Shown one piece after another: positions 1 to 22,322 of a stretch of DNA of 22,322 nt. This DNA comes from Psammoneis japonica (lineage: Eukaryota). The DNA is taken from the NCBI GenBank assembly GCA_008632985.1, contig QPGO01000005.1, forward strand, positions 1,199,607 through 1,221,928. Direction: 5' to 3'. Position numbers and translations under genes: made by a program. Numbering within the stretch: position 1 is the first letter of the stretch; each line of letters starts with the position of its first letter. The notes under the pieces were generated by a model. It saw nothing but the letters and a program-made list of their open reading frames with translations. It was not told the DNA's origin and ran no database searches.

Positions 1-2220
1 GATGGCCTGGTGCACTTTTTGTGCAGAAGCTGCACGAGAGCCAAGCATGTGCATTCCTGCACAGACACAGCACAAAAACAGAAAACAGAAAGCATGGCAC
101 GCCCATCAGCGACTCACGACAACACCACGTGATGACCATGCATCAAAATGGCGTCATCTGCATCTTTCTGTGGCTCCTCTTTCACTTGCCCGATTGCCCC
201 AAAAGGGCCAGGGAAAGCTTGCACACTTCTGTCATGATGGATCAATGCAAGCTGAAGTTGTTCTTTTCACTCCACAACATCAGAATGCAGCGCAACAGAT
301 TGTCAAGGCACGCCCGCATGTTGGCTGTGCTGTCAGCCAAATCAACACCATTTGCCATTCGCTCACTTGGCAAATTACAAAGCCAACGACTCTTGTTGGC
401 TGAAGCTCTTGAGCCACTTTTGAGACTTGACACAATGGCCCACTTGTCCCGTTCTTCACCCTCTGTGATTCATCAGAGGCGGCAATGCAGTGTTGCTCAC
501 TTTCCTTTGCAAATTTTGGAACACTGAATTGCACAAAAGTGCGTTGTTGTTGTTCAGCTTCAATTTCAATTTTAAGAGTCAAGTTGAATTTGTTGTTTCC
601 TTTTTGTGTGTGCAATTGTCACCTTTTTGTTTTGATTTAAATTCGCTGAAGACTTTCAACATGTGCTTCATTGTCGAAAAACAAGTTTTGTTTTGACGAA
701 TTTGTCGCACATGTGTCAAAAACCAACGAACCTCTTTTTGCACATGCCTTGTTTGAAGAGTGTCATTTGTGGCAACTTGCAATGATTGGCCAATGGCAAA
801 GGTGGTTGAACTCCATTTGTGCTTGATGCATCAACTTGGAGAGTGGGGGTCTGGGGTGTTTGTGCATTCCTTTGTGCTGCACAAGCCAAGCTGAGCCTCC
901 TGTGTTTGTGAAGGTCATTGTGCAGCTGCAAGGAATGTGTGCTTCATGGGTGGTGGCTTGTCTTCTGGGTTGCTTGGGCAGTTGGGGCATGCCAGCTTGG
1001 ATGGCATGGGAGGAATGGGAGGCATGAACTTCTTTTTTCACACCAGCTCTTCTCACACTGTTGGGAGAGGACCCTGCACAGCAGAGAAGCAGGGGTGCTT
1101 CTAGAAAGGGACAAAGACTGGCCTGGGCTTGCTCTGAGAAAAAAGTTTCTTGAAGCAGAAATGAGCCAGCTTTTTCCCAGCTGGTGTTCTCGGGGTTGTT
1201 CTCCAACTGGTGCAAGTGCTTTGGGCACACCACTTCAATGGCTTCACCACCAGCAAAGCAGAAGCAGTGACAATGAGGTGCCACAATTTTTCTGCACAAA
1301 ATCTGCCCCAGTGCACGTGCATCTCTGTTCGCACTCGAAGTTTTGGACAGCGCGCCTGCCCCATGCTGTTCTCAAAGACACTCGAGAATGGTGCAGAAGA
1401 AAAAAACGCCAAAAGTTGTTGAATGGATCGCCTGACAATTGTGCTGCAAAGCGATGCAAAATTTCTCCAAAATCACTCAGAAATGCACGTGCGCGACATG
1501 CGACGCGATTCAAAAAACTGTCGATGTCACAGTTCAGCAGTGCGAGGTCCCACCCAGACCTGGAGCGTGTCTGCCACGCTCTGCCACAATCTTCCTGCAA
1601 AAAATCCTCCCTCTTGCATTTCCTGGGTGCACTCCCTTCAGCATCTCCGTTCTTGGAGTTCCCTGTCGTGAAGTGCTCCAGGCATCTCGCGCACTTTCGT
1701 GCAAACAAGTCACGTGTTTCCAGGTTGTGAACTGCCTCACAGCCAAAAGAAGCAATCTTTGCCTTTGGAGTCACCATGATGCACTGGTCTGCCAAATCAA
1801 ACTCAGCATCACCATGGACAGTCGGGGAGAAATGTCATCAAAACTGCGTGATGATGTGTTTGAGCTCTTGAGAGCTCACCCAGCTTAAGACATCATGGCT
1901 CCAAGTCGCCGTGTTTGTCGTGAACTCTTCCTGATGCTGTGTCTGTGACTTGGCTTCATCGTTGAATTGCCGTGGCCATCGCACTTCAGAGATGACATTC
2001 TTGACAAGAAAAAGTGTCCCTGGGATGCCTCATGACAACGGAGACCCCACAGAACAAAAGAGCAGTGCAGAAAGAGAAATTGCGTGCAAACCAAACAGCC
2101 ACAAACATGCAAAGCCTCGACAAAACACACAGCACGAATGGCAGCGCACAAGGTTGGTCGTGGCGCAACAGAAGCAACGTTGTCAATGCGAACCTTCAAC
2201 AAGAATTTTTGCCACAATCT
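1..2220 (+). repeat. Tandem segmental duplication, copy 1 (cut by window start; unit ~2313 bp)
   Basis: Matches 2316-4533 at an offset of 2313-2315 (ORFs 242..433 vs 2556..2747; 1423..1671 vs 3736..3984). Ends at ...TTTTGCCACAATCT (2220). Confidence 0.95.
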
Positions 2221-4533
2221 GGTGATGCCGGTTGAGGACGTGCAAAACCAACAATTTGACTGCAATGTAAAAAGTTGACTCCATCATGATGCTCCATTTG
2301 AGAGGGCAGTCTGGAGATGGCCTGGTGCACTTTTTGTGCAGAAGCTGCACGAGAGCCAAGCATGTGCATTCCTGCACAGACACAGCACAAAAACAGAAAC
2401 AGAAAGCATGGCACGCCCATCAGCGACTCACGACAACACCACGTGATGACCATGCATCAAAATGGCGTCATCTGCATCTTTCTGTGGCTCCTCTTTCACT
2501 TGCCCGATTGCCCCAAAAGGGCCAGGGAAAGCTTGCACACTTCTGTCATGATGGATCAATGCAAGCTGAAGTTGTTCTTTTCACTCCACAACATCAGAAT
2601 GCAGCGCAACAGATTGTCAAGGCACGCCCGCATGTTGGCTGTGCTGTCAGCCAAATCAACGCCATTTGCCATTCGCTCACTTGGCAAATTACAAAGCCAA
2701 CGACTCTTGTTGGCTGAAGCTCTTGAGCCACTTTTGAGACTTGACACAATGGCCCACTTGTCCCGTTCTTCACCCTCTGTGTTTCATCAGAGGCGGCAAT
2801 GCAGTGTTGCTCACTTTCCTTTGTAAATTTTGGAACACTGAATTGCACAAAAGTGCGTTGTTGTTGTTCAGCTTCAATTTCAATTTTAAGAGTCAAGTTG
2901 AATTTGTTGTTTCCTTTTTGTGTGTGCAATTGTCACCTTTTTGTTTTGATTTAAATTCGCCGAAGACTTTCAACATGTGCTTCATTGTCGAAAAACAAGT
3001 TTTGTTTTGACGAATTTGTCGCACATGTGTCAAAAACCAACGAACCTCTTTTTGCACATGCCTTGTTTGAAGAGTGTCATTTGTGGCAACTTGCAATGAT
3101 TGGCCAATGGCAAAGGTGGTTGAACTCCATTTGTGCTTGATGCATCAACTTGGAGAGTGGGGGTCTGGGGTGTTTGTGCATTCCTTTGTGCTGCACAAGC
3201 CAAGCTGAGCCTCCTGTGTTTGTGAAGGTCATTGTGCAGCTGCAAGGAATGTGTGCTTCATGGGTGGTGGCTTGTCTTCTGGGTTGCTTGGGCAGTTGGG
3301 GCATGCCAGCTTGGATGGCATGGGAGGAATGGGAGGCATGAACTTCTTTTTTCACACCAGCTCTTCTCACACTGTTGGGAGAGGACCCTGCACAGCAGAG
3401 AAGCAGGGGTGCTTCTAGAAAGGGACAAAGACTGGCCTGGGCTTGCTCTGAGAAAAAAGTTTCTTGAAGCAGAAATGAGCCAGCTTTTTCCCAGCTGGTG
3501 TTCTCGGGGTTGTTCTCCAACTGGTGCAAGTGCTTTGGGCACACCACTTCAATGGCTTCACCACCAGCAAAGCAGAAGCAGTGACAATGAGGTGCCACAA
3601 TTTTTCTGCACAAAATCTGCCCCAGTGCACGTGCATCTCTGTTCGCACTCGAAGTTTTGGACAGCACGCCTGCCCCATGCTGTTCTCAAGACACTCGAGA
3701 ATGGTGCAGAAGAAAAAAACGCCAAAAGTTGTTGAATGGATCACCTGACAATTGTGCTACAAAGCGATGCAAAATTTTACCAAAATCACTTGGAAATGCA
3801 CGTGCACGACATGCGAAGCAATTCAAAAAACTGTCGATGTCACAGTTCAGCAGTGCGAGGCCCCACCCAGACCCACAGCACGTCTGCAGCGCTCTGCCAC
3901 AATCTTCCTGCAAAAAATCCTCCCTCTTGCGTTTCCTGGGTGCACTCCCTTCCGCATCTCCGTTCTTGGAGTTCCCTGCTGTGAAGTGCTCCAGGCATCT
4001 TGCACACTTTTGTGCAAACAAGTCACATGTTTCCAGGTTGTGAACTGCCTCACAGCCAAAAGAAGCAATCTTTGCCTTTAGAGTCACCATGATGCGCTGG
4101 TCTGCCAAATCAAACTCAGCATCACCATGGACAGTCGGGGAGAAATGTTGTCAAAACTGCGTGATGATGTGTTTGAGCTCTTGAGAGCTCACCCAGCTTA
4201 AGACATCATGGCTCCAAGTCACCGTGTTTGTCACAAACTTTTCCTGATGCTGTGTCTGTGACTTGGCTTCGTCGTTGAATTGCCGTGGCCATCGCACTTC
4301 AGAGATGACATTCTTGACAAGAAAAAGTGTCCCTGGGATGCCTCATGACAACGGAGACCCCACAGAACAAAAGAGCAGCGCAGAAAGAGAAATTGCGTGC
4401 AAACCAAACAGCCACAAACATGCAAAGCCTCGACAAAACACACAGCACGAATGGCAGCGCACAAGGTTGGTCGTGGCGCAACAGAAGCAACGTTGTCAAT
4501 GCGAACCTTCAACAAGAATTTTTGCCACAATCT
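2221..4533 (+). repeat. Tandem segmental duplication, copy 2
   Basis: Starts GGTGATGCCGGTTGAGGACG (same as 8090) and ends TTTTGCCACAATCT at 4533, after which the sequence differs from copy 1's continuation. Confidence 0.95.
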
Positions 4534-5096
4534 GCCCATGCAAACGTGGGTGTTCTCAAGCTTGTCTCGTGTGAGATGACACAATTGCACCGAGCTCCAT
4601 TGAGAGCATCCAGGTTCCAACCTCAGAGACAATCGCATTTGTCAATTTGGCGAAACGCCATTGTCCGTGCCATTTTGTGTGTCATTTTGAGCCGTGAGCC
4701 AGAAAACACTCCCAAAAACTGCTCTGCAGGGCAAAATGTGCTGAACCTGCACAGGTTTGGGTTGCACCAGGCCGCGCAGAAAGTGAGCGGGCCAAAAACT
4801 CCGGCGCACCCACCCAAACACATTCAACAACTGACTGACAACAGACTGGTTGACTGGCTTCCCAAGGCACCACTTGCATTGTGCCCTTCCCCAGCTGCTC
4901 TCCAGCTGGCACCGTGGAATGCAGTCATTTAATTTAGATTGTGTCTGCAACATCATTTGCAACAAACGTGACTGCCGCTTTTCACACATTGTCTGCCAAA
5001 CAGGTGTTGGCTCCAGCTCATGTGTCTCAGTGCAACCCACCATGTGGCTTTCCTCATCCCCCAACCCACTGCCCCCCTCCTCCACTTTCCTGTCAT

Positions 5097-5215
5097 GCTC
5101 TGCCACAATCTTCCTGCAAAAATCCTCCCTCTTGCATTTCCTGGGTGCACTCCCTTCCGCATCTCCGTTCTTGGAGTTCCCTGCCGTGAAGTGCTTCAGG
5201 CATCTCATGCACTTT
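5097..5215 (+). repeat. Dispersed partial copy of 1578-1697 / 3891-4010
   Basis: GCTCTGCCACAATCTTCCTGCAAAAATCCTCCCTCTTGCATTTCCTGGGTGCACTCCC... recurs; the minus-strand peptide HFTAGNSKNGDAEGSAPRKCKREDF is shared. Confidence 0.9.
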
Positions 5216-5281
5216 TCTCTCCTTTGCCCCACGTTCTTCATTGGGCAGGTTCTTGTTGTTCTGCAGCTCTGTCGTGACCAG

Positions 5282-6004
5282 CAAAATGGCCAAGGGCACA
5301 AAATCAAAAAGGACAAAAAATGTCTGTTGAGGGCACCAAATCACAAAGGGCACAAACCAGGCAGGGGCAAAAAATTGCTGAGGTCACAAAATGACTGAGG
5401 GTGCAAAATGGTGGCTGAGGGCACAAAGCTGCCAAGGGCAAAAAATCAGAAAGGGTCCAAAATGGCAAAGGGCACAAAACCACAATGGCCAAAAATTGCT
5501 GAAGGCACAAAATCATGAGGGGCACCAAATGCGGCTGAGGGCCCAAAGCCAAAAAAGGCACAAAATGGACAAGGGCACAAAGTCACAAAGGGCGCAAAAT
5601 GGCCAAGGGCACAAAACCACGAAAAGCACAAAATGCTCAAGGGCGCAAAAAAAGGAAAGGGCGCAAAACAGCCAAGGGCACAAAAAGGTCAAGGGCACAA
5701 AATCAAGAACTGCGCAACATGACTGAGGGCACAAAATCTCAATGGTGCAAAGTGGCCAAGGGCACAAAACAAAAAATGACAAAAAATGGGAGTTGAGGGC
5801 ACAAAATCACAAAGGGCACAAACTTTCCTGGGGCACAAAAAAAATCACTGAATGGAGTGAGAGTGCAAAATGGCAGCTGAGGGCTCAAAGTTGCAAAGGG
5901 CGCAAATTGGCCAAGGGCAGCGCAAAAGGCACAAAGGGCACAAAGTGGCCAACGGCAAAAAACCAGGAAGAGCAAAAGTGCAAAGTGGCCAAGGGCACAA
6001 AATC
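5282..6004. repeat. Degenerate minisatellite with core AGGGCACAAAA, spacing ~16-20 bp
   Basis: Dozens of GGGCACAAA/GGGCGCAAA cores joined by recurring short linkers (TGGCCA, TCACAA, TGACTG). Confidence 0.9.
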
Positions 6005-6429
6005 ATGAATGGAAAAATGGCGGTGGCAGCGGCAGCAGTTGTGCCACCCTTGTGACTCAAGATGTTGTCGCAGCTGCCCTCACGCTGTCATTGTTGCACT
6101 TTGCAAAAAAGCCAAGATGCAGTGTGCGAGGGGACAAATCGGTGAAATCCGTCTCTGCATCATGGGGAAGCCCATTTGTCCCCCATGATGCGCTCATCCT
6201 CGGCTCTGCATGTCGGGGGTCACAGCATGTTGGGTGAGCATGTCAACCTCTCTCCCCCAACACGCCATTCCCGTGCCATGCACGCTTTTGTTGACATGCC
6301 ACAGAAGCCATTTTGCTTGGCCTGGCTTCATCATGAGTGTTCTTTGATCCACAGCTGCAGGATGTCACCCTTTTTTGTGGCGTCCTCTTTTGTTGCTGAT
6401 GTGTCCACTCCACGTCAGCTCCATTTTTG

Positions 6430-6662: not shown

Positions 6663-7100
6663 AATTGCACCACAAACTTGGCCGTTCATTTGATGTTGAA
6701 GACAAATGTGTCCATCAATTAATTCTGCTGCGGAGCTCGCACGCAGAATTCTGTGGGCCCAATGTCACACGGAGTCCCGCCTGGTGCTGGAGCGCATCGC
6801 GCATGCCTCCTCGTCTCCTTCCCTTGTGTTGCCGTCCGTGCCACCGGCGCTGCACTCCATTCTGCCCAAACACATGTGTTGTTTGAAGCAACAAACCCTG
6901 CTCTGCTTTCCCAAGGCATTTGCGGCAGTTGTCCCATTGGCTTTGCTCCAGTGCCCCCAGCGCCAAACACTTGCACCACAAATCTTGTTTGATCAGTGCC
7001 CTTGCCAGCGGGCTGTGTCCCTTCAGTGCCCCCCTGCAACACGCGGCGGGTCATGTGCAAAGATTGTCCTCGATTTAAAGACGCCTTTGGAGCTTCATGG

Positions 7101-7440
7101 AAGTGCGCAAATGCACAAGTGCGCAAACGCAGAAGTGCAAAAATGCAAAAATGCAAAAATGCGAAAAATGCGGAAATGCAAAAATGCAAAAATGCGGAAA
7201 TGCGGAAAGCGAAAATGCGGAAATGCAAAAATGCAAAAATGCAAAAATGCTGAAATGCGGAAATCCGAAAGTGCAAAAATGCGAAAATGCGAAAATGCGA
7301 AATGCAGAAATGCAGAAATGCGAAAATGCAGAAATGCAGAAATGCAGAAATGCAGAAATGCAGAAATGCAAAAATGCAAAAATGCGGGAATGCAGAAAAG
7401 CACGAAAATGCAGAAATGTGGAAATGCGAAAATGCAAAAA
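7101..7440. repeat. 8-bp tandem repeat (AAATGCRR)n, about 40 units
   Basis: AAATGCAA/AAATGCGG/AAATGCAG/AAATGCGA units in mostly 8-bp phase. Confidence 0.95.
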
Positions 7441-7491
7441 GGGCCAGGGTTGGGGTCAGGGTTGGGTTTGGGGCTGGGGTCAGGGTTGGGG
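7441..7491 (+). repeat. Degenerate interstitial telomere-type array derived from (TTAGGG)n, 8 hexamers
   Basis: GGG CCAGGG TTGGGG TCAGGG TTGGGT TTGGGG CTGGGG TCAGGG TTGGGG. The 6-bp phase is exact, and the TA position is TG or CA in every unit. Confidence 0.8.
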
Positions 7492-7494
7492 TTT

Positions 7495-8104
7495 GTCTCT
7501 GAATCTTTGGCACATGACATCTTGTCTGTCAACATGACAATGTTTTTTGTGTGTTGGTTTCATGACAAGGTGCTGTGCTCAGCAAATGTCCGCCAAAGTG
7601 CTGTGGCGGTGTTTCAAGCTCAAGACGAAATTGGTTGGAGACAGATTTTTGATGGGCGCTTCTCATCTTTGTGGAACAAAGCTCAGCCATCATGCTCGCT
7701 GTCAGCTGGATTGTGCCGCTCCTTGTCGAACATGGAAAAGCGCTCAGATTGGGCCGCTGCGATTGGCAGTTTTGTGTGGCCCCAATGGCGGGAACTCTCC
7801 ATGACGGCACTGCACATGGGCACAATTTGGGCACAAGAAAGTCCTCACAGCACCATGACGCCAAGGCCGAAGCACGAGCCATCCACTCCAAGGCAGACAT
7901 TGTTCAGCTTGCAATGGATCCGAGTTGCTCAGCTCAGCGGAGGAGCACCTCACTTGTTTGACCCACAGGTTGCACAGCTGGTTGGCCATGGCTCAACCAG
8001 TGTTCAAGTCAAGCATCCACGAAGCCTGGCATCTGGCAGCGAGGGGCACTGGCGCCACTGCAAGTTGTTTTGGCACAACATCACCTCAGGGTGATGCCGG
8101 TTGA
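7495..8104 (+). mobile_element. Decayed 3' end of a non-LTR retrotransposon ORF2 (diatom-type, possibly Ambal-like)
   Basis: AQDEIGWRQIFDGRFSSLWNKAQ...WAAAIGSFVWPQWREL, then after frameshifts HGHNLGTRK...ARAIHSK and EHLT...LHSWLAMAQPVFKSSIHEAWHLAARGTGATASCF...GDAG* (TGA 8102-8104). Matches, from memory, the Q-x2-IGW-x5-GR-x-S-x2-W...W...RN..HG...I.SYF C-terminal pattern of such elements. Confidence 0.7.
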
Positions 8105-10308
8105 GGACGTGCAAAACCAACAATTTGACTGCAATGCAAAAAGTTGACTCCGTCATGATGCTCCATTTGAGAGGGCAGTCTGGAGATGGCCTGGTGCACT
8201 TTTGTGCAGAAGCTGCGCGAGAGCCAAGCACGTGCATTCCTGCACAGACGCAGCACAAAAACAGAAAACAGAGAGCATGGCACGCCCGTCAGCGACTCAC
8301 GACAACACCACGTGACGACCATGCATCAAAATGGCGTCATCCGCATCTTTCTGTGGCTCCTCTTTCACTTGCCCGATTGCCCCAAAAGGGCCAGGGAAAG
8401 CTCGCGCACTTCTGTCATGATGGATCAATGCAAGCTGAAGCTGTTCTTTTCATTCCACAACATCAGAATGCAGCGCAACAGATTGTCAAGGTGCGCCCGC
8501 ATGTTGACTGTGCTGTCAGCCAAATCAATGCCATTTGCCGTTCACTCACTTGGCGAGTTACAAAGCCAACGACTCTTGTTGGCTGAAGCTCTTGAGCCAC
8601 TTTTGAGACTTGACACAATGGCCCACTTGTCCCGTTCTTCACCCTCTGTGTTTCATCAGAGGCGGCAATGCAGTGTTGCTCACTTTCCTTTGTAAATTTT
8701 GGAACACTGAATTGCACAAAAGTGTGTTGTTGTTGTTCAGCTTCAGTTTCAATTTTAAGAGTCAAGTTGAATTTGTTGTTTCCTTTTTGTGTGTGCAATT
8801 GTCACCTTTTTGTTTTGATTTAAATTTGCCAAAGACTTTCAACATGTGTTTCATTGTCGAAAAACAAGTTTTGTTTTGATGAATTTGTTGCACATGTGTC
8901 AAAAACCAACGAACCTCTTTTTGCACATGCCTTGTTTGAAGAGTGTCATTTGTGGCAACTTTGCAATGATTGGCCAATGGCAAAGGTGGTTGAACTCCAT
9001 TTGTGCTTGATGCATCAACTTGGAGAGTGGGGGTCTGGGGTGTTTGTGCACTCCTTTGTGCTGCACAAGCCAAGCTGAGCCTCCTGTGTTTGTGAAGGTC
9101 ATTGTGCAGTTGCAAGGAATGTGTGCTTCATGGGTGGTGGCTTGTCTTCTGGGTTGCTTGGGCAGTTGGGGCATGCCAGCTTGGATGCATGGGAGGCATG
9201 GGAGGCATGAACTTCTTTTTTCACACCCTGTGGCTGGCGGTGCCTCTCAGCAAAATGGCTGCAGATTGAGCAAATGCAGACACCCGTGCAGTGTTTCTAA
9301 ATTGCCTTTTTGTCTCTGGCTTTGGTGCAAGAGTGCACTCCCGTTGCCCAGCCAACTGTTGGGCACTGACCAAGAGTGACCCCCTCAACACTCCACTGTC
9401 CACAGATGAGTTGGGAAACTCAGAAAAGCTTGCCTCCACATCAACCTGACTGGGGCTGGAGTTGGGAGAGCCTGGCAGACCTGGAGACATGAAAAAACTC
9501 TTGGCTGGGGAGACTGCCTTGCCAAGCATTTGTGTGCTTTTCCTTCCAATGTGCGATGGAGACAACTGCAACACCCTGGCTGTTTTGGCTGGAGCTTGGC
9601 CAGCTCTCAACCCAAATGGGGAAAAATCTGCTTGAGCAGGAGAAGCTGACAGCCTGCCAAGGTTGGGAGGTGCAGAGCAGGTGCCTGTTGCTCTGCTCAC
9701 CATTGCAAGAGTGCCCCTTTGGTGCTGATCAAAACTCCATCCTGTCAAGCAAAAGCTTGGGCTGCACAAACTGAGAAAAGAAATCTTGCTGCTCTGGGGC
9801 TGGGCCATCATGCCCATCCTCAGGTTTGCTGTCTGAGGAACTCATGGTTGAGATGAGCAAGGTGCTCAAAAGTGTTGGTTGTGTTGTGAGGGCTGGAGTT
9901 GAGAGTTTCTGTTGAAAATGAAAATTTGGGCCGCCACGTCCGGCAGGTGGGTCAGACTTCCTTTTGCAAAAATGCAAAGAACAGAAAAAAGCTGCCAAGT
10001 TGAGATGGAACTCACCAAGCAGTGCTTGCACTGGGCTCAGCTCTTCTCGCGCTGTTGGGAGAGGACCCTGCACAGCAGAGAAGCAGGGGGGGCTTCTAGA
10101 AAGGGACAAAGACTGGCCTGGGCTTGCTCTGAGAAAAAAGTTTCTTGAAGCAGAAATGAGCCAGCTTTTTCCCAGCTGGTGTTCTCGGGGTTGTTCTCTA
10201 ACTGGTGCAAGTGCTTTGCGCACACCACTTCAATGGCTTCACCACCAGCAAAGCAGAAGCAGTGACAATGAGGTGCCACAATTTTTCTGCACAAAATCTG
10301 CCCCAGTG
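8090..10308 (+). repeat. Third, more complete copy of the duplicated segment, with ~810 bp (9228-10037) absent from copies 1 and 2
   Basis: 8090-9227 aligns to 2221-3358 and 10038-10308 aligns to 1044-1313. It diverges from copies 1 and 2 after CTGCCCCAGTG. Confidence 0.9.
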
Positions 10309-11323: not shown

Positions 11324-11640
11324 GGGGAAATCTGACCTTGTTTCATGACATTGCATGACGTTTGCCATGGTCCATGGTGTGCCAGAATCTGACATTGTGT
11401 TGGTGACATCAGCAGTCATGTGGAAACAGCATGAAAAATGAGCAACAGAGGGAAATCTGACCTTGTGTTGTGACATTGCATGACGTTTCACTGTGGTGAG
11501 CCAGAGCCCAACATTGTGGTGGTGACATCAGCAGCTGCATGAGAACAGTGGGAAAAACAAGCAACAGAGGGAAATCTGACCTTGCGTCATGACATTGCAT
11601 GATGTTTTGCCATGGTGAGCCAGGGTCTGACATTGTGTGG
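11324..11640. repeat. ~120-bp tandem repeat, about 2.6 units
   Basis: AAATCTGACCTTG..TGACATTGCATGA starts at 11328, 11453 and 11572 (spacing 125 and 119). Confidence 0.9.
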
Positions 11641-12552
11641 CACAGGCATCCCCACCGTGGCCACCGACGACGCCACTTTCCTGCATCTGCAGGCTGTCCG
11701 CAGCAATGCTGATCCTGCAGAAGCGTGCTGCAGAAAGCACGACTCCCAGTGCGAGACCTGCAATGGGCCACAGGAGTGACCCACATGACTGAGACCTGTG
11801 CAGCTGGCCATCGCGCAAGTGGCTTGCCTTGTGTGAAGGGTCTGCGCAGGATGCATGCAGCGCCAAGCATGAGCCTGTGAATTGGCTCCGCATGAGCATC
11901 AATCAAGTGTTGCAAAAGACTCAGGCTCAAATCTTTCCAATGACTCATCATGTAAAAAGAACTCCCATTTCTTGGAAAAAGACACCATCGTGCATCTGCA
12001 CTCTAGCCAGCTAAAACAATCTCACAATTTTTGCACACACACAAAACAAATCTCCATCTCTGTGGTTCAAGTGCTTGTCCCCCATTTCTGCATGGGTCAA
12101 CTGCAGCCATGACATTGCAGCATGTGTCAAAATGGGGGGGAAGTGATTGCCAACTGCCAAGGTTTCATTGCAGCCAACACAAGCCATGAAAACTCTCATC
12201 TAAAATGAGGGCATGCTTGCTGAAATGTCCAGACAGGAACACATCAAAATGTGGCTGTTGATTGGAAAAAGTTTTGTGTGACATGGCCAAGTGGAGATGT
12301 GTCAACATGAGGGAGGTTTGGGAGTGAAGTCACTTGAGACGGTGCTCCCCTGACATGGACACCCAACATGAGGGACTCCCTTGAGATCAAGTCCCTTGCA
12401 ATGGAAAAACACCCTCAAACTGTGAAAAGTCTGGTTAAACCCATTTCCTGTGTGCTGCTGAGAGATGGGGAAAGCCAGTCCGCTGTCTCAAGCATTTGAG
12501 CCAGACACCAAACCAAGTTGCTGCATTGAGTGCAAAGGGACCCCTCCAAGCA

Positions 12553-12950
12553 ATCAAGTGGCATGTGGGCACATCATTTGCAGTGCTGCATCCAGACTTT
12601 ATGAGCTGCACAAGAGGGGCTGTGACCACAAGCAATGGAGCAGTGCAGGCTGCATTGAAACACCAGAAGCTGAGCACCCAAAGCAGCACAGAGGCTGAAC
12701 TTGTGGGAGTCAATGATGCAATGATGATGACTCTGTGGATGAAGTTGTTGTTCGTGGAGCATCAGGTGCATCTAATTGACAAGAACAATGTCCTGCATCA
12801 AGGCAACAAGAGTGCTGGGCCATCAGAAGCTGCAATCTCAGAGCACAGCATTGTCCAGCCAATGACGTGCTTGTTGGAGTCCTCTTGACTGAGAAACCAT
12901 TGCAGGGCAAGAAGTTTTGAAAGCTCAAATGAGACATTGCGGGCTGTTGA
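12553..12950 (+). mobile_element. Decayed Ty1/copia (CoDi-like) pol RNase H C-terminal fragment
   Basis: IKWHVGTSFAVLHPDFMSCT...QKLSTQSSTEAELVGVNDAM..TLW..LF.EHQVH...NVLHQGNKSA, then QHCP..D......KPLQGKKF*KLK*DIAG. Recalled copia consensus: WYVDASFAVHPD.KSHTG...KQKLNT.SSTEAELV..DD......W...F.E.QGY....ILYQDNKSA...EYCPT.EM..DF.TKPLQG..FRKFR..I.G. Confidence 0.92.
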
Positions 12951-15900
12951 CTTTGAGCATGACAAAAGCAGCTCCTGTTTGTGACATCAGACAAGAACTC
13001 CGATGCACGTGGGCAAAAGATCCCTGCAACCCAGAAAGGGTCATGAGCCACACAGTTCAGCCAGCTGCACTTCAGAGCATCATCAGCCATGAACAAACTT
13101 GGATGAAAATGAGTTTGCTTTGCAGCACAACAGTGTGGTGGCCCAGCAATGGCTGTGGGACTGCTGCTCTGGAGCAAGTTTCACAAACTTGCAGACTTGG
13201 CAGGAGATGAAAGATGAGTGGTTGTGGACAAGGATCATTGTGGCAGAGCATCAAAAGAGCCAATGAAATGGATCAGAAGCAGCAAGATGAGGTTGACTCA
13301 ACCCATGTCTCCACCATGATGTCACAGACCTGTCTCATGTTCTGGGAGACATCATTGATGAAACAAAGAGAGACTCTGCAGACACACCTTCCTGTTGGCT
13401 GTTGGGGGGGAACCAGGCAATGCTTTGGTTTTGTGGCAAGACCCGCAGATGAATGGGTGCCAGTTGATGAAGGAGGTGGACAAGGAAATGCAATGAGAGT
13501 GGAGTCTTGAAGTGCACAAATGTGTGTCTGCTGTCACACCAATGTTCTCCATCCACAATGATCTGAGGAGAGCATCTGAGATTCAACATCATGATTGCAA
13601 AGCACACAAAGACCAAAGAACATTGGCAAATCATGGGAGGCCAAGCCGGGGGGCAAGATGAGCTGTGTTGTTGCAGACAACACAATGATGGCAAGGAGCA
13701 CATGAGAAATGAGTGCGCCACCAGATCAATGGACAATGAGTGTTGCAGCTGGCCCTGGAAAAGAGCAACATCTGTGACCCATGCAAGATGTTGAGCATCA
13801 GTTTTCCCACCTGTGGTGCAGACAAATGTGGAGCATGTGGTCCCTTTGTGGGTTGTTCTGCTGTGGAATGGAGTTCTTTGATTTGACTCCTGAGATGGCC
13901 AGCGGTTGGATTGTGGACCTGATTGATGGCTCAAACAGCAAAGTTGCAAAAGAGGAGATTTTGTCATGCTTGTGTGGAGCATTTTGTGGAGTGTGTCACC
14001 CTTGTTTGACTGCATGGTTGATCACTCTGATGATGGGCAGCGCACCAGCTTGCACATTTCTGAGTTGCAGGGTGTCAGCTGCAGGGCAAGAGGTGAACAT
14101 GACACCAACTTGCTTGGTCACTGCACCAGATGGATCTGTTTTCCTCAATGTCAGCCAGACCTGTCTGGCCAGCAAAACATTGATGCAAGTGGCAAGAGTG
14201 CATTGGAAGGAGCCTGGCTTTCTCTCAGATCACCATGGCCAATGTTGAGCTCCCGGGGCCTGTCTTTTTGAGTGGCTTGACTGCACTGGCCCACAGCCAT
14301 TGTTGTCACACTGGCACCACTGTGCTGCACAGGCATTGTTTCAGAAGGCAAAAAACAATGTGTGCTGCTTGGTGTGGTGAGTGAAATCAAATTGTCTGAT
14401 TTGTGCTCATGCTTTGTTGCACTGGAACTCTGTCAATGGGCCAAAGAACAGGCACTCCTGCTGGGTGTTGTAGGGTGCTCACTCAAGATCCAACAGCCCC
14501 CCTGTTGTTGTTGACAGCACCATTTGTCGGCTTGTGACTGAGTGCATGTTTAAAAGTGGCATGACCAGCTGCTCTTCACTGCTCTCTGATGGTCTGTTTT
14601 GTCCAAGTTGGCAACAAACAGACACAGGAGAGGATGACAGCTGCAGCTTGGTCACACACTGCACCCACACTCAGCATCAGATTGATGTGCCAAGCGGCAC
14701 ATGCAGAGCTCTCGTCCTTTCAAATGGTCTTGCCATGTGGCAACTTCCTGCCTCTGCAGATTTGGAAAACAAGGGGACACTGGGATGGAGCCACCCAGCA
14801 TGTGCACAAATGCTGGTGGCAACTGGCATGACAAATTGTGCCCCGAGCTGCAGCACTTCAATCTGATGAGCTGCCATCACCTGCCACCTGCTCCTGGCCA
14901 AGGCTGTCAAACTTAAAATGCTGGTGCAAAATGGCTCCTCCTCCTCATGTTTCAAACAGCTGACACCACCTGTGGCAGAGCTGCAATGAGCACAGTGTGA
15001 CCCTGCCAAAAAAGTCTCAGATGCTGGCACGCCAATGTCCACACTGTTGTTTGATGACAGAAGCCCTCCCACTTTGGCAAACAACCTCAGAGCACTTTGC
15101 AGAGATGCAGCCAGCCAGCTTGCTTTTTGACAAATGTGTCTGAGTTCAAACCAGTGGCACTCACACTGCAAGCTGAGGAAAGTGGAAAAATTGGGACAAC
15201 TCCACTGTGTGAGAAAGAAGTGCACTGAAATCTGCAAAAGCAGGCAATTGCTGCAACCATGTGTGGCTCTTGGAGCCTGGCAGGTTTTGCAATCTTTCTT
15301 GTGTTGTTCTGTTTTTTCAACATTTTCAAAAAGCCACATCATGGCAAACCTTCAAGAACCTGCCTGGAAGGTTCAATGCCATTGTGCAATGAGCTGTGGC
15401 CAACACCATTGCTTGGCACTCCTCTCTTTCTGTCAACCACACACTTGGCAGAACATTCCTCTGGGCCCTTGATTTCTCAGCTTTGTGGCTTTGCAAACTT
15501 CCAAATTTTGATGCCAGCACCAGCACCATGTTTGCTCTCCAATGGGAACTGTCATGTCAGGATTTGGCATCATTGCTGAAACAAAGTTGTCATTTTCATC
15601 AACCCAGACAGACAAGAAAGGAAGGTGGGCACATTCCATCCCCAGCCAACTCAAAAAAATGGTGGGAGGGGTGCCATTGACCCAGTGCTTGTGCAGCAAT
15701 GGCATGGGCATGTGGCCTTTGCAGCTGAGTGCAAGAGAAAAAGGCTCACTTTCATGGCAAGCACAGTTCTTCTTCAAGCTCTGGGAGGCATTTTCCCCTG
15801 TCATTGCTGTGCAGGAAATCCCAGCATCAGCAGCACGGGGTTTGCCCCCAAAGTGTCAGCAAGCACTTCAAACCCAGTGTGTCAGCAAGCACTGTTGAAG

Positions 15901-16980
15901 TCACTGCCACATTGACTGTGCATCTCCAGTTTGGAGAGAACTTCTCTTGAAGAGAGCCTGATGCTGGCAAGTTTGACCTTGGGAAAACCTGCACATGCCC
16001 CACGGACACTGCCACCTTGATGATGCACTCTCTGGCCGTGCTGGAAGAAGATCCCAATGTCTGTGTTCCAAACGTTGGTGAATTTGAGAAAGGCACTGTG
16101 ACAAAATGAAGGCATTGCAGACTTTGCAGACTGCCATGATCTGCTTGCTTCAGTGCCCATGTGTCATGACAATTGGCGGTGTGACACATCTGCATCAAAG
16201 AAAGCAGAGCTGAGAAGCCATCAACCAAAACAATTCATTCATGATTTTTTTTAGAAAAGAAGAGCTGAGCATGCCAAAAGTGGCAGTGCTGTGCAAGCAG
16301 CACTTGGTCTGTCTTTTGTGCCAGAAGCTCAGCTCAGGGAGAACAAAGGAGATTTTTGGAGGTGTGCCAAAGTCCCTGACTGGCTCAAACTCCATGATCA
16401 AGTTCTCTGTCCATTTGCAGGTTGGCCAAGAAGGTGTCACAAAGCATGCATCTTTGAAGATCCCGCAAAGGATGGCATGGTTTTGGGCAGCTGCTCTTTC
16501 AAAAGAAATTGTCTGAGCCACTCAGATGTGATGGCATCTTGGTTGGGCTGCTGTTGCACCACTGATGATTGTGAGGTTCTGTGGGCTCTCCTCATGCTTG
16601 CGCACAAAGTGGGCAACACTGTTTGCTGCATTTGTGTTCTCTTTAGAACAGCAAAAACACAAGACAACTGCAGAACAATTTTCTTGGGACAAAAAAATCT
16701 TCTGTCCAAATCTCAGGTGGAAGTGGCACTCCTTGTCCACCAGAGAATGGCAGGGGAACAGAAAAAAGAAAGTGCCTTGGCTGCACCCATTTTCCAGTGG
16801 AGCATGGAAAGAATCCAAGAAGTGACATCTGAGCTGCTCACAATGACATGTGTCCCTGCAGGGGCCAGCCATGAGAAACTTTGACCCATGTCTGTTTGAC
16901 CTTGATCACCGCTGCTGCACACCAAAGGAGTCAATGGTCACGGCCCATCTCTGAGGATCAAAGGCATGCTGGGCAACATG

Positions 16981-17150
16981 AAAGTGAAGGCTTGTTCCAA
17001 TCATGGGTGCAACTGCTTTGGGAGTTGGCCAAAGGCATTGCTGGGGTGCTCCAGCTGCAGAAAGACCATCACTGCTCAGCAGACTGCCAGGTGAAAGACT
17101 GGAAAGAGGGTGGCCACAAGAAAGCATGTAGAAAGAAAGAGCAAACTGCA
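16981..17150 (+). pseudogene. Decayed MYND zinc-finger gene fragment; upstream ORF 16291..16884 is in frame with its N-half and may belong to it
   Basis: KACSNHGCNCFGSWPKALLGCSSCRKT, frameshift, then HCSADCQVKDWKEGGHKKACRK. Fits MYND pattern C..C...CxxC....YCSxxCQxxxW...HKxxC with the conserved Tyr read as His (CAC 17070-17072). Confidence 0.85.
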
Positions 17151-17669
17151 CGCCAACACGTTCATGAGAGCAGCTTTCCTTGCTTCATGACAATGACAAG
17201 CAACAACCAATCATTGCAACTCTCATGCTTTTGTTTCCACCACGATGTGTGAACTCATTTGCAGAACCAAGAGATGTGCTTTAATTCTCTTGCTTCCAGC
17301 TTCAGTGGTGAGGCTTTCTCCAATCTTGCTGCAGAGCCAGATTGAATTTGGACCTGTCCACAGATCCGTCTTCACCAGCTTGGCACACTCTTCAGGTGCA
17401 AGGAACAACTTTTGTCTGCCAAACTGACGCACAGTGCTTGCATCCAAACATGTCACAAATGGCATTGCCAGGCACTTCAACACTGGGACAATGATCTGTT
17501 CCTGGCTCTGAGGGGGTCAAAGTCCACATTTGTTGTCAAAACGCAATGACACCCTCACAACGTCAGACAGTTGAGCAATGCAATCCATTCAATTGCTGTT
17601 CCCTCACTCAAAAAAACAAGCACCCCTGTGCCATCTAAGATCCCTGCAATCAATCTGAAAAGACTTGGC

Positions 17670-18125
17670 GCACCTTGTGATCCAGGCGGACATCCAGCAC
17701 CCTTCTGTGTGGTTCAATGCCATTCAGCTCTTGAGCGGCATTCTCCACATTGCTCTTCTGATGGAGTTGTGTGGCACCAAATCCTTTCTTCCTGCCATCT
17801 GTGGTCTCCATGACTTTGGCTCATTTCACATTGCCACATGTCCCAAAGTGATCCTTGAGATCTTGCCAAGTGGTGCTGCAGGAAAGGTTTCCAACAAAAA
17901 GTTGGAAACCGCTGCTGCCACCACCATGTCCTCTGCTTTGGTGTCCACCTTGAGAATGTCCACCACTGCCTCCAAATTGGTTTTGGTCTTCACAAATGGA
18001 AATCTCACATCCATTGAGCTCTGAATTCTGAAGCTCACAAATGGCCCTTGCAGCCTGTTGTGGGTGCTGACAAACAACAACTCCACAACCAATCAAACGT
18101 CCATCATGGTCACTGAGCATTGATG
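17670..18125 (-). pseudogene. Decayed fragment of a Gbp2/hnRNP-M-like multi-RRM RNA-binding protein gene
   Basis: GRLIGCGVVVCQHPQQAARAICELQNSELNGCEISICED, Gly-rich linker, QLFVGNLSCSTTWQDLKDHFGTCGNVK*AKVMETTDGRKKGFGATQLH...AAQELNGIEPHRRVLDVRLDHK. RNP2/RNP1 motifs are present, and the frame continues through an in-frame TGA (17821-17823) where Arg is expected. Confidence 0.88.
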
Positions 18126-18360
18126 CCTGCATTTGCAAAGAGATGCAGAGGCACCAGGTTCAGCAACCTCAAAACAAACAAAACAAAGTTGCAATGATCA
18201 TTGCCTGTGAAACCAACCTGGTCAATGTTTCCAGCTGCATGCATGTGATCTTTTAGAGTCTGCCAGTGTGCATTGCAGGGCAGGTTCCAAACATGCCCTG
18301 AAGTCCCCTGACAACAGCCTCCGCCATTGCAAAAGCCACCAGTTGCTCCACTGCTTGTCT

Positions 18361-19330
18361 CTCAGTCTTGCCATCCACTGCAGTTTCTTGAAACTCACAT
18401 GACCAAATTGTTGGTGGCATTTTAGGAGTGGTGATGCCCCAGCAGTTCCTTGGTGGTGCTCTTCATCCTTTGCCACCATTGGTGGCTCAGAGACTTTGTC
18501 CTGCACCACAGTTGGTTTGAGGTTGAACTTGGCAAGTTGTCCATGTCTCCCTCATGCTTGCCACTCATCTTTGGTCTGTCTGAGTCAAAAACTGCTGCTG
18601 TCAAAAACTGCTGCTGTGGACCCATCACCTTTCCCAGGAGCCAACTCTGAGTCTTGCAATTGGTTTTGGCCTGTGGGTTTTCATTCTCTGTGCAGCACTT
18701 GCATTTTCTCCCTCAGCCTTGTCTTGGTCCTCATTGTCACTTGCAGTGGTGGCCTCTTTGGCAGGTGCAGCATCCTTGACTTTGTGCACTGGGTCAATGT
18801 CAGCCTTGGCACAGAATGCCTTGCACATCTGATGTTGTGGTTCCAAGTGAAATGTTGCCACATTGCTCATCTCACTCACTGGCACAGGTCGGTGTTTCTT
18901 CTGGCTCATCCAACAGAGGGCACCTGCTTTGAGTCAGTCTTGCTGCCAGCCCCTCTTCTCTGAATTTGTCATCCCACTGGGTTTTAGCCCGGTGTTGAGG
19001 GCTGCACAACGTGACCTTCCTGCTTGGTGAGCAAAACAAGTTTGGCATCTTGAGCTTGTGTGCTCCACCTTCATCATCATTGCACCTCTTCAGCAGGGTG
19101 CTGACCTTGACTCCTGTTGCTTGAGAACCATCTGAAACCTTTTGTGGTCCTGTTGCAATCTTGCAGTTCACAGATGAAGTCTTCTGCACAATTGGATGTG
19201 CAACCTGCAGCCTGATTGTCAACTCTGACTGGTCCAGAATCAGTGTCAAAGGCCACTGTGTGCTCCAAGATGCTCTTGTGCTGAGCTTGCATTGCCGCCA
19301 CAACCACAGCCAATGCTGCGGCACAATGTC
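18361..19330 (-). mobile_element. Decayed Ty1/copia (CoDi-like) polyprotein fragment: protease region to GAG-pre-integrase
   Basis: Across frameshifts: VAFDTDSGPVRVDNQAAGCTS..AEDFI.EL.DCNRTTKGF, VKVSTLL...DDEG.AHKLKMPN.....KVTLCSPQH, SNVATFHLEPQH...AFCA, LLKCHQQFGHVSFKKLQWMARL. These match recalled FDTDS..IG.DN, LLSPQHW, NVATF and H.RFGH.SF.KL..MA motifs. Confidence 0.85.
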
Positions 19331-19764
19331 CTGATTGCTTTGGGCTCTTGAGCTTGTCTGTGGACTGGCAGAGTCTTTGGATCCCCCCTCTTCTGTGCAA
19401 GTCAGCTTCAATGGAGTGCGCAACTGGCAAATGCAATGGGCAATTGACTTTCCTCAAACATCAGGAAACTGGCATGAGAACACCTCAATCTGATTGGATG
19501 ATTGGCTTGCAAGACACAATGAGAGGGAGTGTGAAGATTGTCAAATCATCGTGACAGTCATTGTGCCTCACCATTTTGATGACTTGTGTCATCAGGGCCA
19601 GCATCATTCAAAACACTCCAAAGAGAGGATGCACTGCATGCAGTCTCTAGAGAGCTTCCTCTCCTTACAATCTCAATTTAGTCGCTGCAACACCAGCACC
19701 TGGAACCACCCCAATTGCCCCAATGTCCTTTGTTCATCACCACACTTTCTCTGTTGACTTTGCT

Positions 19765-20593
19765 CTGGACATCACAACACTTGATGGCCCATCAACATTG
19801 GGTCTTGTGTGTGAGTGCAGCAAGAGTCTGGCATTGTCTGGCATGGGTCAAATCACAATGCTTGCAAATGATGATGCCAAAACAGGGCCAGAAGATGTGC
19901 ACCACAACAAAGAGCTGGACAACTCAGGTCGGGGATGTTAAAAAGCTGCTCAATCAGCCAGGTGTTGAGGTGGAGGAGGAGACTGATGAGACTGATGTTC
20001 TTGTGAATTGTTTGCATGGATTGAACCCTTCTGTTTGTGTTTCAAAAATGATTGGATCACAATTGAAAGAGAGACAAGATGCAGAGGGTGGGATGCTTGC
20101 ATGCATGGATCACCCAAACTCCACTCAAATGAATCTGAACTGTGTTTGCCGTGAAAAGAGCATGCCTTTTGTTGCCTCAAAGACTGCAGGCATGTGCGGA
20201 TGCACATTTTGTGACTTCAGTCCCCCTTTGTTTCAAGCAGTTGGCTCCAATGGTGAAACTCCACTCATCATGCCGCCAGGTCATGTCAAGACAGTGGGAG
20301 ACAAGCCAAAGGTTGGATGTCTCAAGGGCAAAAAACATGATGTTTCCAAGGGTGGCAAAATTGTTTTCTGGCTTGGGAATGGCAGCAAGAAGATGCCAAG
20401 TTGTTGCATGGTGATGGGCGCCCTCAATCTAACAACTTTTGCCACTCTGTTGGAATCAACTGAGGGAGTCCCAGAGACTGACCTGGTCAACAAAATCAAT
20501 GACAATGCACCATGCTTCAGCCGAGCTAAAATTCTCACCTCAAAAAGTTGCATTCAAGCTGCTGGAAAAAGGGGGACAAATCTGCGGATCTGA
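19765..20593 (+). pseudogene. Decayed ubiquitin-activating enzyme E1 (UBA1/ThiF-family) N-terminal fragment
   Basis: GLVCECSKSLALSGMGQIT (cf. G...E.AKNL.L.GV), frameshift, then L.GLNPSV.V and LNCVCREKSMPFVASKTAGMCGCTFCDFSPPLF....NGETP (cf. N..CR.....F......G..G..FCDFG..F...D.DGE.P of UBA1). Confidence 0.75.
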
Positions 20594-21929
20594 CTCTGTC
20601 CATTTTGTTCCCCGGCACTGTGTGAACAGACCAGGTGGCTGCCAATGCATTGTGCGAAGTGGAGGCATCAGAGCCAGCCAGAAAAGAGAAAAAAATGGAG
20701 TTGAAACCAGAGCTGGAACCCCCACCACAAAACGTGGTGGGGGCCCATGCTGGAATCAAAAACAGTCAAACAGGTCAAATTGAGTCATGACACCACATCA
20801 TGCGTGCATCTCCAAGAATGGCCATGACAGCAGTGAACCCATCCAATGAGGTTGAGGCTTTTGAACAAATGCTGGCACACTGTCATGAATGTGGGCAGTT
20901 GTGTGCCATTGGCGATTGGTCCACTGTTGCTTGTTTGGTGGTCCCAGCAGCATGGCATCTCACAATTCTAGAACCTGTTGATGCTGTTCAACACTCTGTT
21001 TTGTCTTGCACCCAATTCTCAGCTGTCATGGCAGCATTTGTTCACTTCATCAGAGCCAATGCACTGTGATGTTCATCACCTGGAATGGGCATTGTGAACA
21101 GTGCAACAGTGTTGTTGCGATTGATCAATTTTTGTGGTGAGTGCCATGTTGGTCCCATGGTTGCTCACACAATCGCTGAGTCCTTTACATGCGTTGATGT
21201 TCATGCGCATGAATGACATGCTCCAGGAGGCCAGAGCTGCAATCCGTTGGACATGACATTGAGAAATGAAATGTTTGATCCCATGAATGGAGTGTGCAGG
21301 CTAAGACATGCAAACATGCATGAGAGAAGGTTGACATGACAATTCATGTGTGGAGGTCTGTCATTTGACCATGTGCATTTGTTCAAGCAGAATCCGTTGA
21401 CATGACACCTGCACACTGCACATGTGGATGCATGCCTGTTGGAAATTGTTGCTCAGAAGTCACCTTGCCTGCTCGCAGGTTCGCTGAGCAGAAATTGCCA
21501 AAGCGACACAAGAAACACACAAATCTCCTCTCACACAAGTGCATCAGAGTGCACGAAATGTCAAAAATGTGAAGATTCACACAATGACAATTTGTCGAAA
21601 TGTTGCAAAAAATTGTTGTCATGCAATGACAGGCCAACCTCTGGTCACAAGTTTGCTGTGCCAACACTGCAATGACTTGCCAAGAATTGTGTGTGCCATT
21701 TTTCACTGTGTCCACATCACTGCATCTGCCTCCACCTTGTTGCCATGTGCCAATGCATGGTTGCATTGCCGCACAATCCTTGGTTTGTCAATTTTTGCAA
21801 ACATCATTTTAAACAAGAAAAGCATTTCATCGGTTGGGTCAATCCCTTGTTGCATCTGCAGTGCAGTGACCGAGTGCCATGTTAACTGTGCACACATTTT
21901 CTTGCTGCAACTCTCTCAAACCAAGCCAA

Positions 21930-22322
21930 CGATCATCATCGGACTCGTCCACATCGGACTCGTCTCCTCCGTTGTTCATTTTGCCTTTTGCACCTTCCTC
22001 CTGCTCATCGTTGTTGCTGTTGTCATCCCTGCTGCTCTCCACCATTGGGCTGTTCATTGCCTTCACCTTCTCTGCATCGCCGGTTGGTGCTTTCTTCTTC
22101 TTCTTTTTTGCTTCTCCGGACTTCTCGCAATCGCTTTTCTTGATCTCCGTGTGCCACTTTTCAAACTCCTTGCCCTCCTTGGAGTCTCCATCTTTTGTCA
22201 CCTCTTTGCACAAATCGTTGAACCGATTGATTCCGTTGTCTCCCCAAGACACTGGTTGTTTCTTTGGCTTCATGCACCGAGGGGCAGGCCTTGTTTCTTC
22301 GGGCTCCATTTCCTCACCCAAT
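21930..22322 (-). pseudogene. C-terminal remnant of an uncharacterised Lys-rich/acidic-tailed protein, probably repeat-associated
   Basis: SWGDNGINRFNDLCKEVTKDGDSKEGKEFEKWH, then KKKKKK and a DESDVDESDDD tail. Composition is protein-like, unlike the neighbouring spurious ORFs; no TA in the segment; family not identified. Confidence 0.45.

Follow-up and report, generated by a model that had tools for sequence, protein, structure and literature searches.

Which process can erase one dinucleotide, TpA, from more than 20 kb of eukaryotic DNA while leaving the other combinations of A and T in place? The question is raised by a stretch of 22,322 nucleotides of contig QPGO01000005.1 (the window, meaning here the whole stretch that was analysed), for which the original prediction proposed an enzymatic process that converts TpA to TpG or CpA in repeated or silent DNA as a genome defence. 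The analysis reported here indicates that the window probably carries the saturated footprint of a TpA-specific transition process acting on unconstrained DNA, similar to one found in Bigelowiella natans (Mettrop et al. 2026, bioRxiv 10.64898/2026.01.13.699255). There is a high probability that the phenomenon is real. It is of the same, very recently described kind as that of B. natans, to which it adds a new lineage, a saturated form and a new detail of specificity.

Near-complete loss of TpA

The window consists of 5794 A, 5641 T, 5488 G and 5399 C, from which 1464.2 TA dinucleotides are expected; 60 are observed, an observed/expected ratio (O/E) of 0.041 and a frequency of 60/22321 or 0.0027. 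About 96% of the expected TA is gone across 22 kb, a deficit of ~38 standard deviations (binomial standard deviation ~37, by our own arithmetic from the counts). The estimate first made by eye, ~60 against ~1,500, was right in both count and expectation, and so was the statement that AT, AA and TT stay abundant: AT occurs 1191 times (O/E 0.81), TT 1728 times (O/E 1.21) and AA, which is enriched, 2046 times (O/E 1.36). CA (2409, O/E 1.72) and TG (2523, O/E 1.82) exceed expectation by 1008 and 1136, respectively, and GC, at an O/E of 1.29, is over-represented as well. The polarity is opposite to that of fungal repeat-induced point mutation (RIP), as the original prediction had pointed out: RIP changes C to T at CpA with a gain of TpA, whereas here TpA is at 0.041 of expectation with CpA and TpG in excess.

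The depletion is uniform. Each 1-kb bin holds 0 to 6 TA, the TA O/E is 0.041 both in positions 1-9000 and in positions 9001-22322, and 22 of 22 one-kb windows pass the thresholds used to define clusters in B. natans; the highest Rho TpA among them is 0.09 and the lowest Rho CpA+TpG 1.56. TATA does not occur at all, and its four possible products, TGCA, TGTG, CACA and CATG, are all within the seven most over-represented tetranucleotides, foremost among them TGCA, whose 354 copies are 4.1 times the number expected from mononucleotides when the microsatellite is masked; the bias is consistent with TATA-type sequence turned into one of these four words. As a baseline, 246 one-kb windows were taken from 79 metagenome loci around relatives of an RNA-binding protein gene of which the window holds a fragment; these loci are mostly short and coding and come from other species, which makes them an imperfect neutral control. 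Rho TpA of the baseline windows has a median of 0.63 and a minimum of 0.117, and both cluster thresholds are passed by only two of the 246, which come from a single locus.

These figures bear on the alternative that TpA>TpG/CpA is a neutral bias of the whole genome, in which selection keeps TA only in functional sequence and dead DNA drifts to near-zero TA. Such a bias would account for the equal depletion of every sequence class with no border inside the window, and all the recognisable content of the window is non-functional. On the other hand, the diatom-like orthologue loci of the baseline have ordinary TpA levels at the median, with the reservation that they are mostly coding and from other species, and the same signature is regional in B. 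natans, where it is ~1000-fold above the rest of the genome (10.64898/2026.01.13.699255). The cost of a genome-wide bias can also be gauged: TA makes up 0.27% of the dinucleotides of the window and TG+CA 22%, so that, if composition is at equilibrium, the forward rate per TA exceeds the reverse rate per TG or CA by a factor of the order of 80 (our own arithmetic), and a rate of that size throughout the genome would be expected to burden heavily the Tyr, Ile and Leu codons and stop codons. A genome-wide bias is an unlikely explanation, though one to be taken seriously.

Direction of change

Three comparisons within the window, all of which the original prediction had put forward as internal controls, agree, if indirectly, that the change runs from TA to TG or CA. 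The first is provided by the pseudogene fragment of a four-RRM RNA-binding protein. Tyr30 of the motif GCGIVxYQ is invariant in 12 of 12 aligned homologues and is replaced in the window by Cys (TGT), and the RRM3 motif VYxxNLxY reads GHVWNLPC, two Tyr having become His and Cys; all three conserved Tyr positions have TGY or CAY codons, and not one Tyr is left in the 169-residue translation. Among 105 columns conserved in at least nine of the 12 homologues, 73 are unchanged and 32 changed. A single CpG-type step explains 15 of the changes (including a CGA>TGA stop), a TA-type step explains three and another single step five, while nine take two or more steps. The first seven residues, which are probably intron-derived, account for four of the 32.

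The second comparison concerns an interstitial telomere-like tract of eight units, none of which is TTAGGG, the telomere repeat of diatoms. The doubled motif TYRGGGTYRGGG has two matches versus 0.02 expected by shuffling. Units of the TG type and of the CA type are interleaved within 55 bp, as had been claimed in support of A>G changes on both DNA strands, and the tract is what would be expected of (TTAGGG)n if every TA had become TG or CA.

The third comparison is between copies of a ~2.3-kb tandem repeat. The 41 substitutions between copies A and B comprise 19 of the CpG type, four of the TA type, 12 other transitions and six transversions, and the sites that differ are 4/9 of TA, 21/71 of CG and 3/203 of AA. 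TA sites are therefore hypermutable and the most variable site class between these paralogues. At alignment column 509, TA is found in copies B and C and CA in copy A; with copy C as the outgroup, this change is polarised as TA>CA.

Superimposed CpG decay

A second process, which the original prediction does not mention, has acted on the same DNA. CG is observed 403 times (O/E 0.30) and is unevenly distributed, with an O/E of 0.51 in 1-9000 and 0.165 in 9001-22322, values of 0.03-0.2 within 9-21 kb, and single 1-kb windows down to 0.03; CpG Rho is 0.11 in 9001-10000, which holds an 810-bp insertion in a repeat copy, versus ~0.57 in 8001-9000. The TA deficit of 1404 and the CG deficit of 924 add up to 2,328, near the TG+CA excess of 2144, and the surplus of CA and TG is thus the joint product of TA and CpG loss, with CpG decay contributing roughly 40% (924/2,328) of the combined deficit. 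The view that TA loss is the source of the TG/CA excess accordingly stands as far as the TA deficit goes and has to be amended for the CpG share. CpG decay as the sole cause does not account for the data either, the CG deficit being far short of the excess and the TA deficit being left over.

Because the TA O/E is equal in both parts of the window while the CG O/E differs, TA loss is independent of CpG decay. The TA-specific transitions hit both strands, including those of sequences that have no RNA intermediate, evenly along at least 22 kb and without regard to CpG loss. Decay of 5-methylcytosine at CpG is a known system that is present in the same DNA, where CpG-type changes dominate the recent, datable divergence; it differs in removing CG and not TA, and in being patchy where TA loss is uniform. 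The tandem-repeat part (1-9000) looks younger or less methylated than the part with the pseudogene and the transposon remnant.

The independence of the two losses also helps to judge whether the same regional signature could be the work of another chemistry, namely modification of the T of TpA (by TET/JBP enzymes, as 5-hydroxymethyluracil or as a base-J-like base), which would then mispair or be repaired to C, or recurrent error-prone patch repair by a Pol-eta-like polymerase inserting G opposite T. TpA is palindromic, and A>G is indistinguishable in finished sequence from T>C on the opposite strand; in dinoflagellates, 5-hydroxymethyluracil is concentrated at TpA and TpC. Strong CpG decay would moreover leave T:G mismatches, to which patch repair could be drawn, but the extent of TA loss along the window does not follow that of CpG loss. 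Pol-eta mutagenesis at WA motifs should erode ApA too, and AA is enriched, so that Pol-eta-like error-prone synthesis, which the original prediction listed as a candidate, fits poorly. We know of no 5-hydroxymethyluracil or base-J pathway in diatoms. Taken together, a chemistry of this kind is rather improbable.

Sequence context of the remaining TpA

The 60 residual TAs were compared with the TG- and CA-containing tetranucleotides that have the same flanks. Residual TA amounts to 0/1230 in RTAY, 17/2598 in mixed contexts and 43/1164 in YTAR (YTAR versus the rest, Fisher p 2e-15), fractions that are indices and not survival rates, as their denominators include native and CpG-derived TG and CA. 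Within YTAR, TTAA retains 20/354, CTAA/TTAG 17/569 and CTAG 6/241, and the mixed contexts divide into those with TAT on one strand (1/1278) and those with TAC (16/1320; p 3e-4). Since TpA is self-complementary, a single strand-wise rule covers all contexts: A in 5′-TAY is converted faster than A in 5′-TAR. The rule resembles the U33-A34 context of the substrates of tRNA deaminases. The target A of tRNA A34 deaminases follows U33 in every natural substrate tRNA, and the early base editors derived from TadA prefer YAC.

A context rule among residual TAs could also be a k-mer-specific effect of base calling, if a modified base at TpA were miscalled (T as C, A as G) and the true DNA were still TA; only one DNA run matches the window sequence, and no RNA runs matching the sampled window words are listed. 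Contigs of the DNA run hold 85% of the sampled 31-mers, however, which suggests accurate reads rather than noisy long ones. Conventional decay is found in the same DNA (the CGA>TGA stop, the 15 CpG-type changes, the truncated gene), and 60 TAs were called normally, five of them common to copies A and B. An artefact of this sort is very unlikely.

The context rule is likewise relevant to ADAR-type A-to-I hyperediting of retroelement double-stranded RNA, fixed by reverse transcription. The 5′ U preference of ADAR (10.64898/2026.01.13.699255, Discussion) and the presence of a copia remnant in the window would suit it. Nonetheless, depletion is just as strong in the tandem repeats, the telomere-like tract and the gene fragment with its intron-like gap, both strands are hit within 55 bp, and AA is not depleted (O/E 1.36). 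TAG and TAA are the best-kept contexts, yet ADAR favours a 3′ G, and conversion of 96% exceeds what would be expected from the editing of one RNA generation. Hyperediting of RNA is extremely unlikely to have produced the pattern. Depletion of these non-retroelement sequences to the level of the copia remnant argues instead for action on DNA in place.

Host lineage

The lineage of the host can be approached through the RRM pseudogene. RRM_1 was recognised in two minus-strand open reading frames (ORFs) at 17.65-18.16 kb (E 3.4e-10 and 1.2e-3), and tblastn recovers the C-terminal half only, with the start of RRM3 at 18304-18215 and the end of RRM3 plus RRM4 at 18129-17671. The intron-like gap of ~85 nt between them (18130-18214), which is GT...AG-like, indicates a genomic copy and not a retro-copy. 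The in-frame TGA at 17821-17823 stands where homologues carry Arg and was read as X in the query for the homologue search. This query has 112 protein matches, the best with E 1e-88 and identity of 46-52%. All named matches of at least 42% identity are from diatoms (Cyclotella, Discostella, Seminavis, Skeletonema and a Bacillariaceae metagenome-assembled genome), and a Ditylum protein is in the cluster of P0007; Prymnesium and Cymbomonas match at 34-36% identity.

A tree was built from the C-terminal 190 residues of the window sequence and 23 of the 112 matches (all named, the best and some distant ones, 89 being omitted). The window falls within a six-row clade (support 97/94) with Seminavis robusta and the Bacillariaceae metagenome-assembled genome, inside a clade (95/98) of all named diatoms without Prymnesium and Cymbomonas; its branch, at 0.88, is a long one. 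Identity to the window over the same columns is 49-57% for the 12 aligned homologues, compared with 56-92% among the homologues themselves. The fragment thus nests among proteins of pennate diatoms, and the host lineage is probably diatom-like and pennate. Copia-type elements dominate the transposons of diatoms, and diatom transposons bear CpG methylation; both, like the telomere repeat, fit the window. An origin of the window from Bigelowiella was considered and rejected, as none of the 112 matches is a Bigelowiella protein and the fragment groups with pennate diatoms in the tree. A decayed duplicate of a host gene is situated inside the depleted domain.

A milder pattern was noticed on L008, a diatom-like metagenome contig of 7.6 kb that carries an intact four-RRM gene with ordinary TpA at 1270-2841. 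Beside this gene, positions 3501-7000 form a patch with Rho TpA of 0.15-0.40, Rho CpA+TpG of 1.3-1.6 and low CpG, in which a reading frame with 'HA' helicase-associated domains is broken by two in-frame stops. The patch could represent the same process at an earlier stage or in milder form, here with its border in view, but it was not counted as a second instance: Tyr codons are still present and there is no YTAR bias.

Comparison with Bigelowiella natans

In mutation-accumulation lines of B. natans, hypermutation of TpA to TpG and CpA was found in two integrated viral regions, a 186-kb insert of a nucleocytoplasmic large DNA virus (NCLDV) and a 25-kb virophage insert, which received 231 of the 302 new single-nucleotide mutations; of these 231, A>G and T>C changes made up 230, all at TpA according to the text of the preprint, and the signature in the lines was confined to silent integrated viral DNA (10.64898/2026.01.13.699255). 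Genome-wide, the same preprint lists 124 clusters of TpA-depleted 1-kb windows and a group of 324 coding sequences (CDS) in which TpA has a frequency of 0.0018 and domains of DDE endonucleases and reverse transcriptases are over-represented. Solely on the strength of structural similarity, it proposes Bn78255 as an ADAT2-like DNA adenine deaminase, and it cites DNA editing by amphioxus BjADAT2.

The statement that no eukaryotic system with this signature had been described is thus out of date, while the accompanying inference of an enzymatic defence that erases TA anticipated the B. natans report well. A literature search found no other report of the TpA>TpG/CpA signature besides this preprint, most subscription journals lying outside its coverage.

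As far as the preprint can be compared with the window, the two are alike in the identical signature of TpA>TpG and TpA>CpA, in the runs of depleted 1-kb windows, in TpA frequency (0.0027 in the window versus 0.0018 in the depleted CDS subgroup) and in having reverse-transcriptase-type elements among the depleted sequences. They differ in host, a chlorarachniophyte rhizarian versus the diatom-like stramenopile of the window; in degree, the active NCLDV insert having a Rho of 0.45 versus 0.04 in the saturated window; in target, viral DNA versus tandem repeats, a host-gene fragment, a telomere-like tract and a copia remnant; and in kind of evidence, a rate measured directly in lines versus a footprint in finished sequence. 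The TAY > TAR rule is seen in the window; the main text of the preprint does not contain the terms flanking, trinucleotide or context, and its Table S2 may cover the matter.

Proposed mechanism

The process that would best explain the window consists of TpA-specific A:T>G:C transitions on DNA in place; a hit on the A of one strand turns TpA into TpG, and a hit on the A of the complementary strand turns it into CpA. The B. natans case suggests by analogy that the process may be regional, a defence of the genome aimed at chromatin that is silent or foreign. The context rule suggests as its agent a putative DNA-acting adenine deaminase of the ADAT2/TadA (tRNA-A34) type. CpG>TpG/CpA decay of the 5-methylcytosine type would be superimposed unevenly, adding to the excess of CA and TG. 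ADAT2/3 and TadA are known to deaminate A after U or T, and the YAC preference matches TAY > TAR; we know of no proof that a natural ADAT is active on chromatin-embedded double-stranded DNA. No deaminase or polymerase domain was identified by Pfam in 264 ORFs of at least 55 aa, in agreement with the prediction that the responsible enzyme is not encoded in the window.

Two better-known systems are comparable in part. RIP is an analogy only: it too floods silent or repeated DNA with DNA-level transitions in a dinucleotide context and destroys coding capacity, but it enriches TpA and needs duplicated sequence and a premeiotic stage. AID/APOBEC enzymes are also a deamination-based defence that leaves clusters of context-specific transitions; they differ in target (C, giving C>T and G>A), in acting on single-stranded DNA and in dinucleotide signature.

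Several observations weigh against a regional, deaminase-driven process in a diatom-like host. The depletion has no border inside the window, so that regional and genome-wide depletion are not separable here. TA-type events are a minority of the datable changes (4/41 between paralogues, 3/32 in the pseudogene), which implies that most TA loss is older than what can be polarised; TA erasure is older, or already complete, in all datable sequence. An outgroup copy gives the polarity of just one paralogue site, and the four dinucleotides that are TG in one and CA in the other of copies A and B are expected from ancestral TA, or equally from ancestral CG, resolving independently. The context fractions share their denominators with native and CpG-derived TG and CA, as stated above. 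The placement in the diatom lineage rests on one decayed fragment of 160 residues with a long branch. No viral families were found by Pfam among the 264 ORFs, unlike the targets in B. natans. The one run in which 85% of the sampled words occur may itself underlie the assembly and hence not be independent. Finally, ADAT2 is to our knowledge universal in eukaryotes, and its presence would discriminate nothing.

With these points taken into account, a TpA-specific transition process on unconstrained DNA is still the explanation that we favour. From the original prediction it keeps the signature, the direction from TA to TG/CA and the action on both strands; the claim of novelty and TA as the sole source of CA and TG are given up. 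A broader proposal can be made only tentatively, being possible but speculative: that a DNA adenine-editing defence against silent, repeated or foreign chromatin is conserved across SAR (stramenopiles, alveolates and Rhizaria) and perhaps beyond, with a chlorarachniophyte and a diatom as its examples, converts virtually all TpA to TpG/CpA independently of cytosine methylation, derives from a tRNA A34 deaminase (hence TAY > TAR), and in diatoms saturates domains of at least 22 kb, including duplicates of host genes.

Other contents of the window

The window is best explained as gene-poor, repeat-rich, unconstrained nuclear DNA. Its features are collected in Table 1; by origin, they include one copia remnant and one host-derived RRM fragment, and most of the sequence is unidentifiable.

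Table 1. Features of the 22,322-nt window, in order of position
Feature	Coordinates	Strand	Remarks
TpA-depleted, CpA/TpG-enriched domain	1..22322	.	TA O/E 0.041; spans the entire window, no border inside
Repeat copy A, ~2.3-kb tandem unit	1..2315	+	1-2221 versus 2316-4534 at 98.1%; no recognisable coding content
Repeat copy B	2316..4534	+	41 substitutions versus copy A
Degenerate 17/34-nt tandem repeat, GGGCACAAAA-type	5282..5918	+	Repeat family D7
8-nt microsatellite AAATGCAA/AAATGCAG/AAATGCGA	7100..7440	+	~41 units; family D1
Interstitial telomere-like tract, eight units	7441..7495	+	CCAGGG, TTGGGG, TCAGGG, TTGGG, TTTGGGG, CTGGGG, TCAGGG, TTGGGG
Repeat copy C	8090..10308	+	Segments 8090-9227 and 10038-10308; 96.6-97.8% identity to copies A and B
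Insertion in repeat copy C	9228..10037	.	810 bp, CpG-poor
119-nt tandem repeat	11325..11640	+	2.6 copies
Ty1/copia-type remnant, reverse transcriptase C-terminus and RNase H region	12445..12819	+	~375 bp recognisable
Pseudogene fragment, diatom-type four-RRM RNA-binding protein (RRM3 and RRM4 only)	17671..18304	-	RRM_1 E 3.4e-10; 112 homologues

No Pfam family and no protein homologue was found for the 2.3-kb repeat, its 272-aa ORF had no homologue in a protein search, and an exact 32-mer of the repeat had no match in viral contigs or metagenome contigs. A piece of 91 nt (1481-1571 and 3794-3884) recurs inverted at 6437-6527, to which it is 90% and 82% complementary, and a piece of 98-127 nt recurs in direct orientation at 5090-5215; the spacer between the copies thus carries rearranged fragments of the repeat. 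The units of the 8-nt microsatellite vary mainly as A/G at two positions (AAATGCAA, AAATGCAG, AAATGCGA, AAATGCGG), and the microsatellite immediately adjoins the telomere-like tract.

The copia remnant matches three database proteins (P0113-P0115) at 35-44% identity (tblastn E 1e-18 to 1e-12), one of which, P0113, has a weak, sub-threshold match to RVT_2 (19.4 bits versus a cut-off of 31.6). What aligns is the part on the RNase H side; nothing further of the element was found upstream by tblastn, and no reverse transcriptase, integrase or long terminal repeat was found in the window. At ~375 bp the remnant is too short for a census of Tyr codons.

No tRNA genes were found in the window, and an Rfam scan (E at most 0.1) gave no matches. 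The Pfam scan covered stop-to-stop ORFs in three sets: 60 of at least 120 aa, with two sub-threshold chance matches only; 103 of 55-119 aa at 10.2-22.3 kb, with RRM_1 in two ORFs and seven weak, sub-threshold matches; and 101 of 55-119 aa at 1-10.1 kb, with no match. Stop-to-stop ORFs as long as 150-300 aa are present in every one of the six frames, those of at least 150 aa numbering 35, and a 464-aa ORF traverses the 8-nt microsatellite. On the plus strand there are 524 TGA, 33 TAA and 17 TAG stops, and the spurious translations abound in Cys, His, Gln and Trp and contain no Tyr. The long ORFs were rejected as genes, since at about one stop per 40 codons ORFs of 150-300 aa are produced by chance (our own arithmetic).

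Implications

TpA-erased domains, with stops that are nearly all TGA and almost no Tyr codons, yield long false ORFs that may mislead gene callers and composition-based binning. The erasure of RTAY and the better retention of YTAR are a concrete specificity that any candidate enzyme must match. A saturated footprint in a diatom-like genome would mean that the process is no curiosity of one species; if so, it acts beyond viral inserts, and its targets would extend to transposon remnants, tandem repeats and dead host genes. With two distant hosts, the question of the enzyme becomes tractable through deaminases that are common to, or expanded in, the species bearing the signature, and as diatoms are major primary producers, some of them genetically tractable, a knock-out test is realistic.

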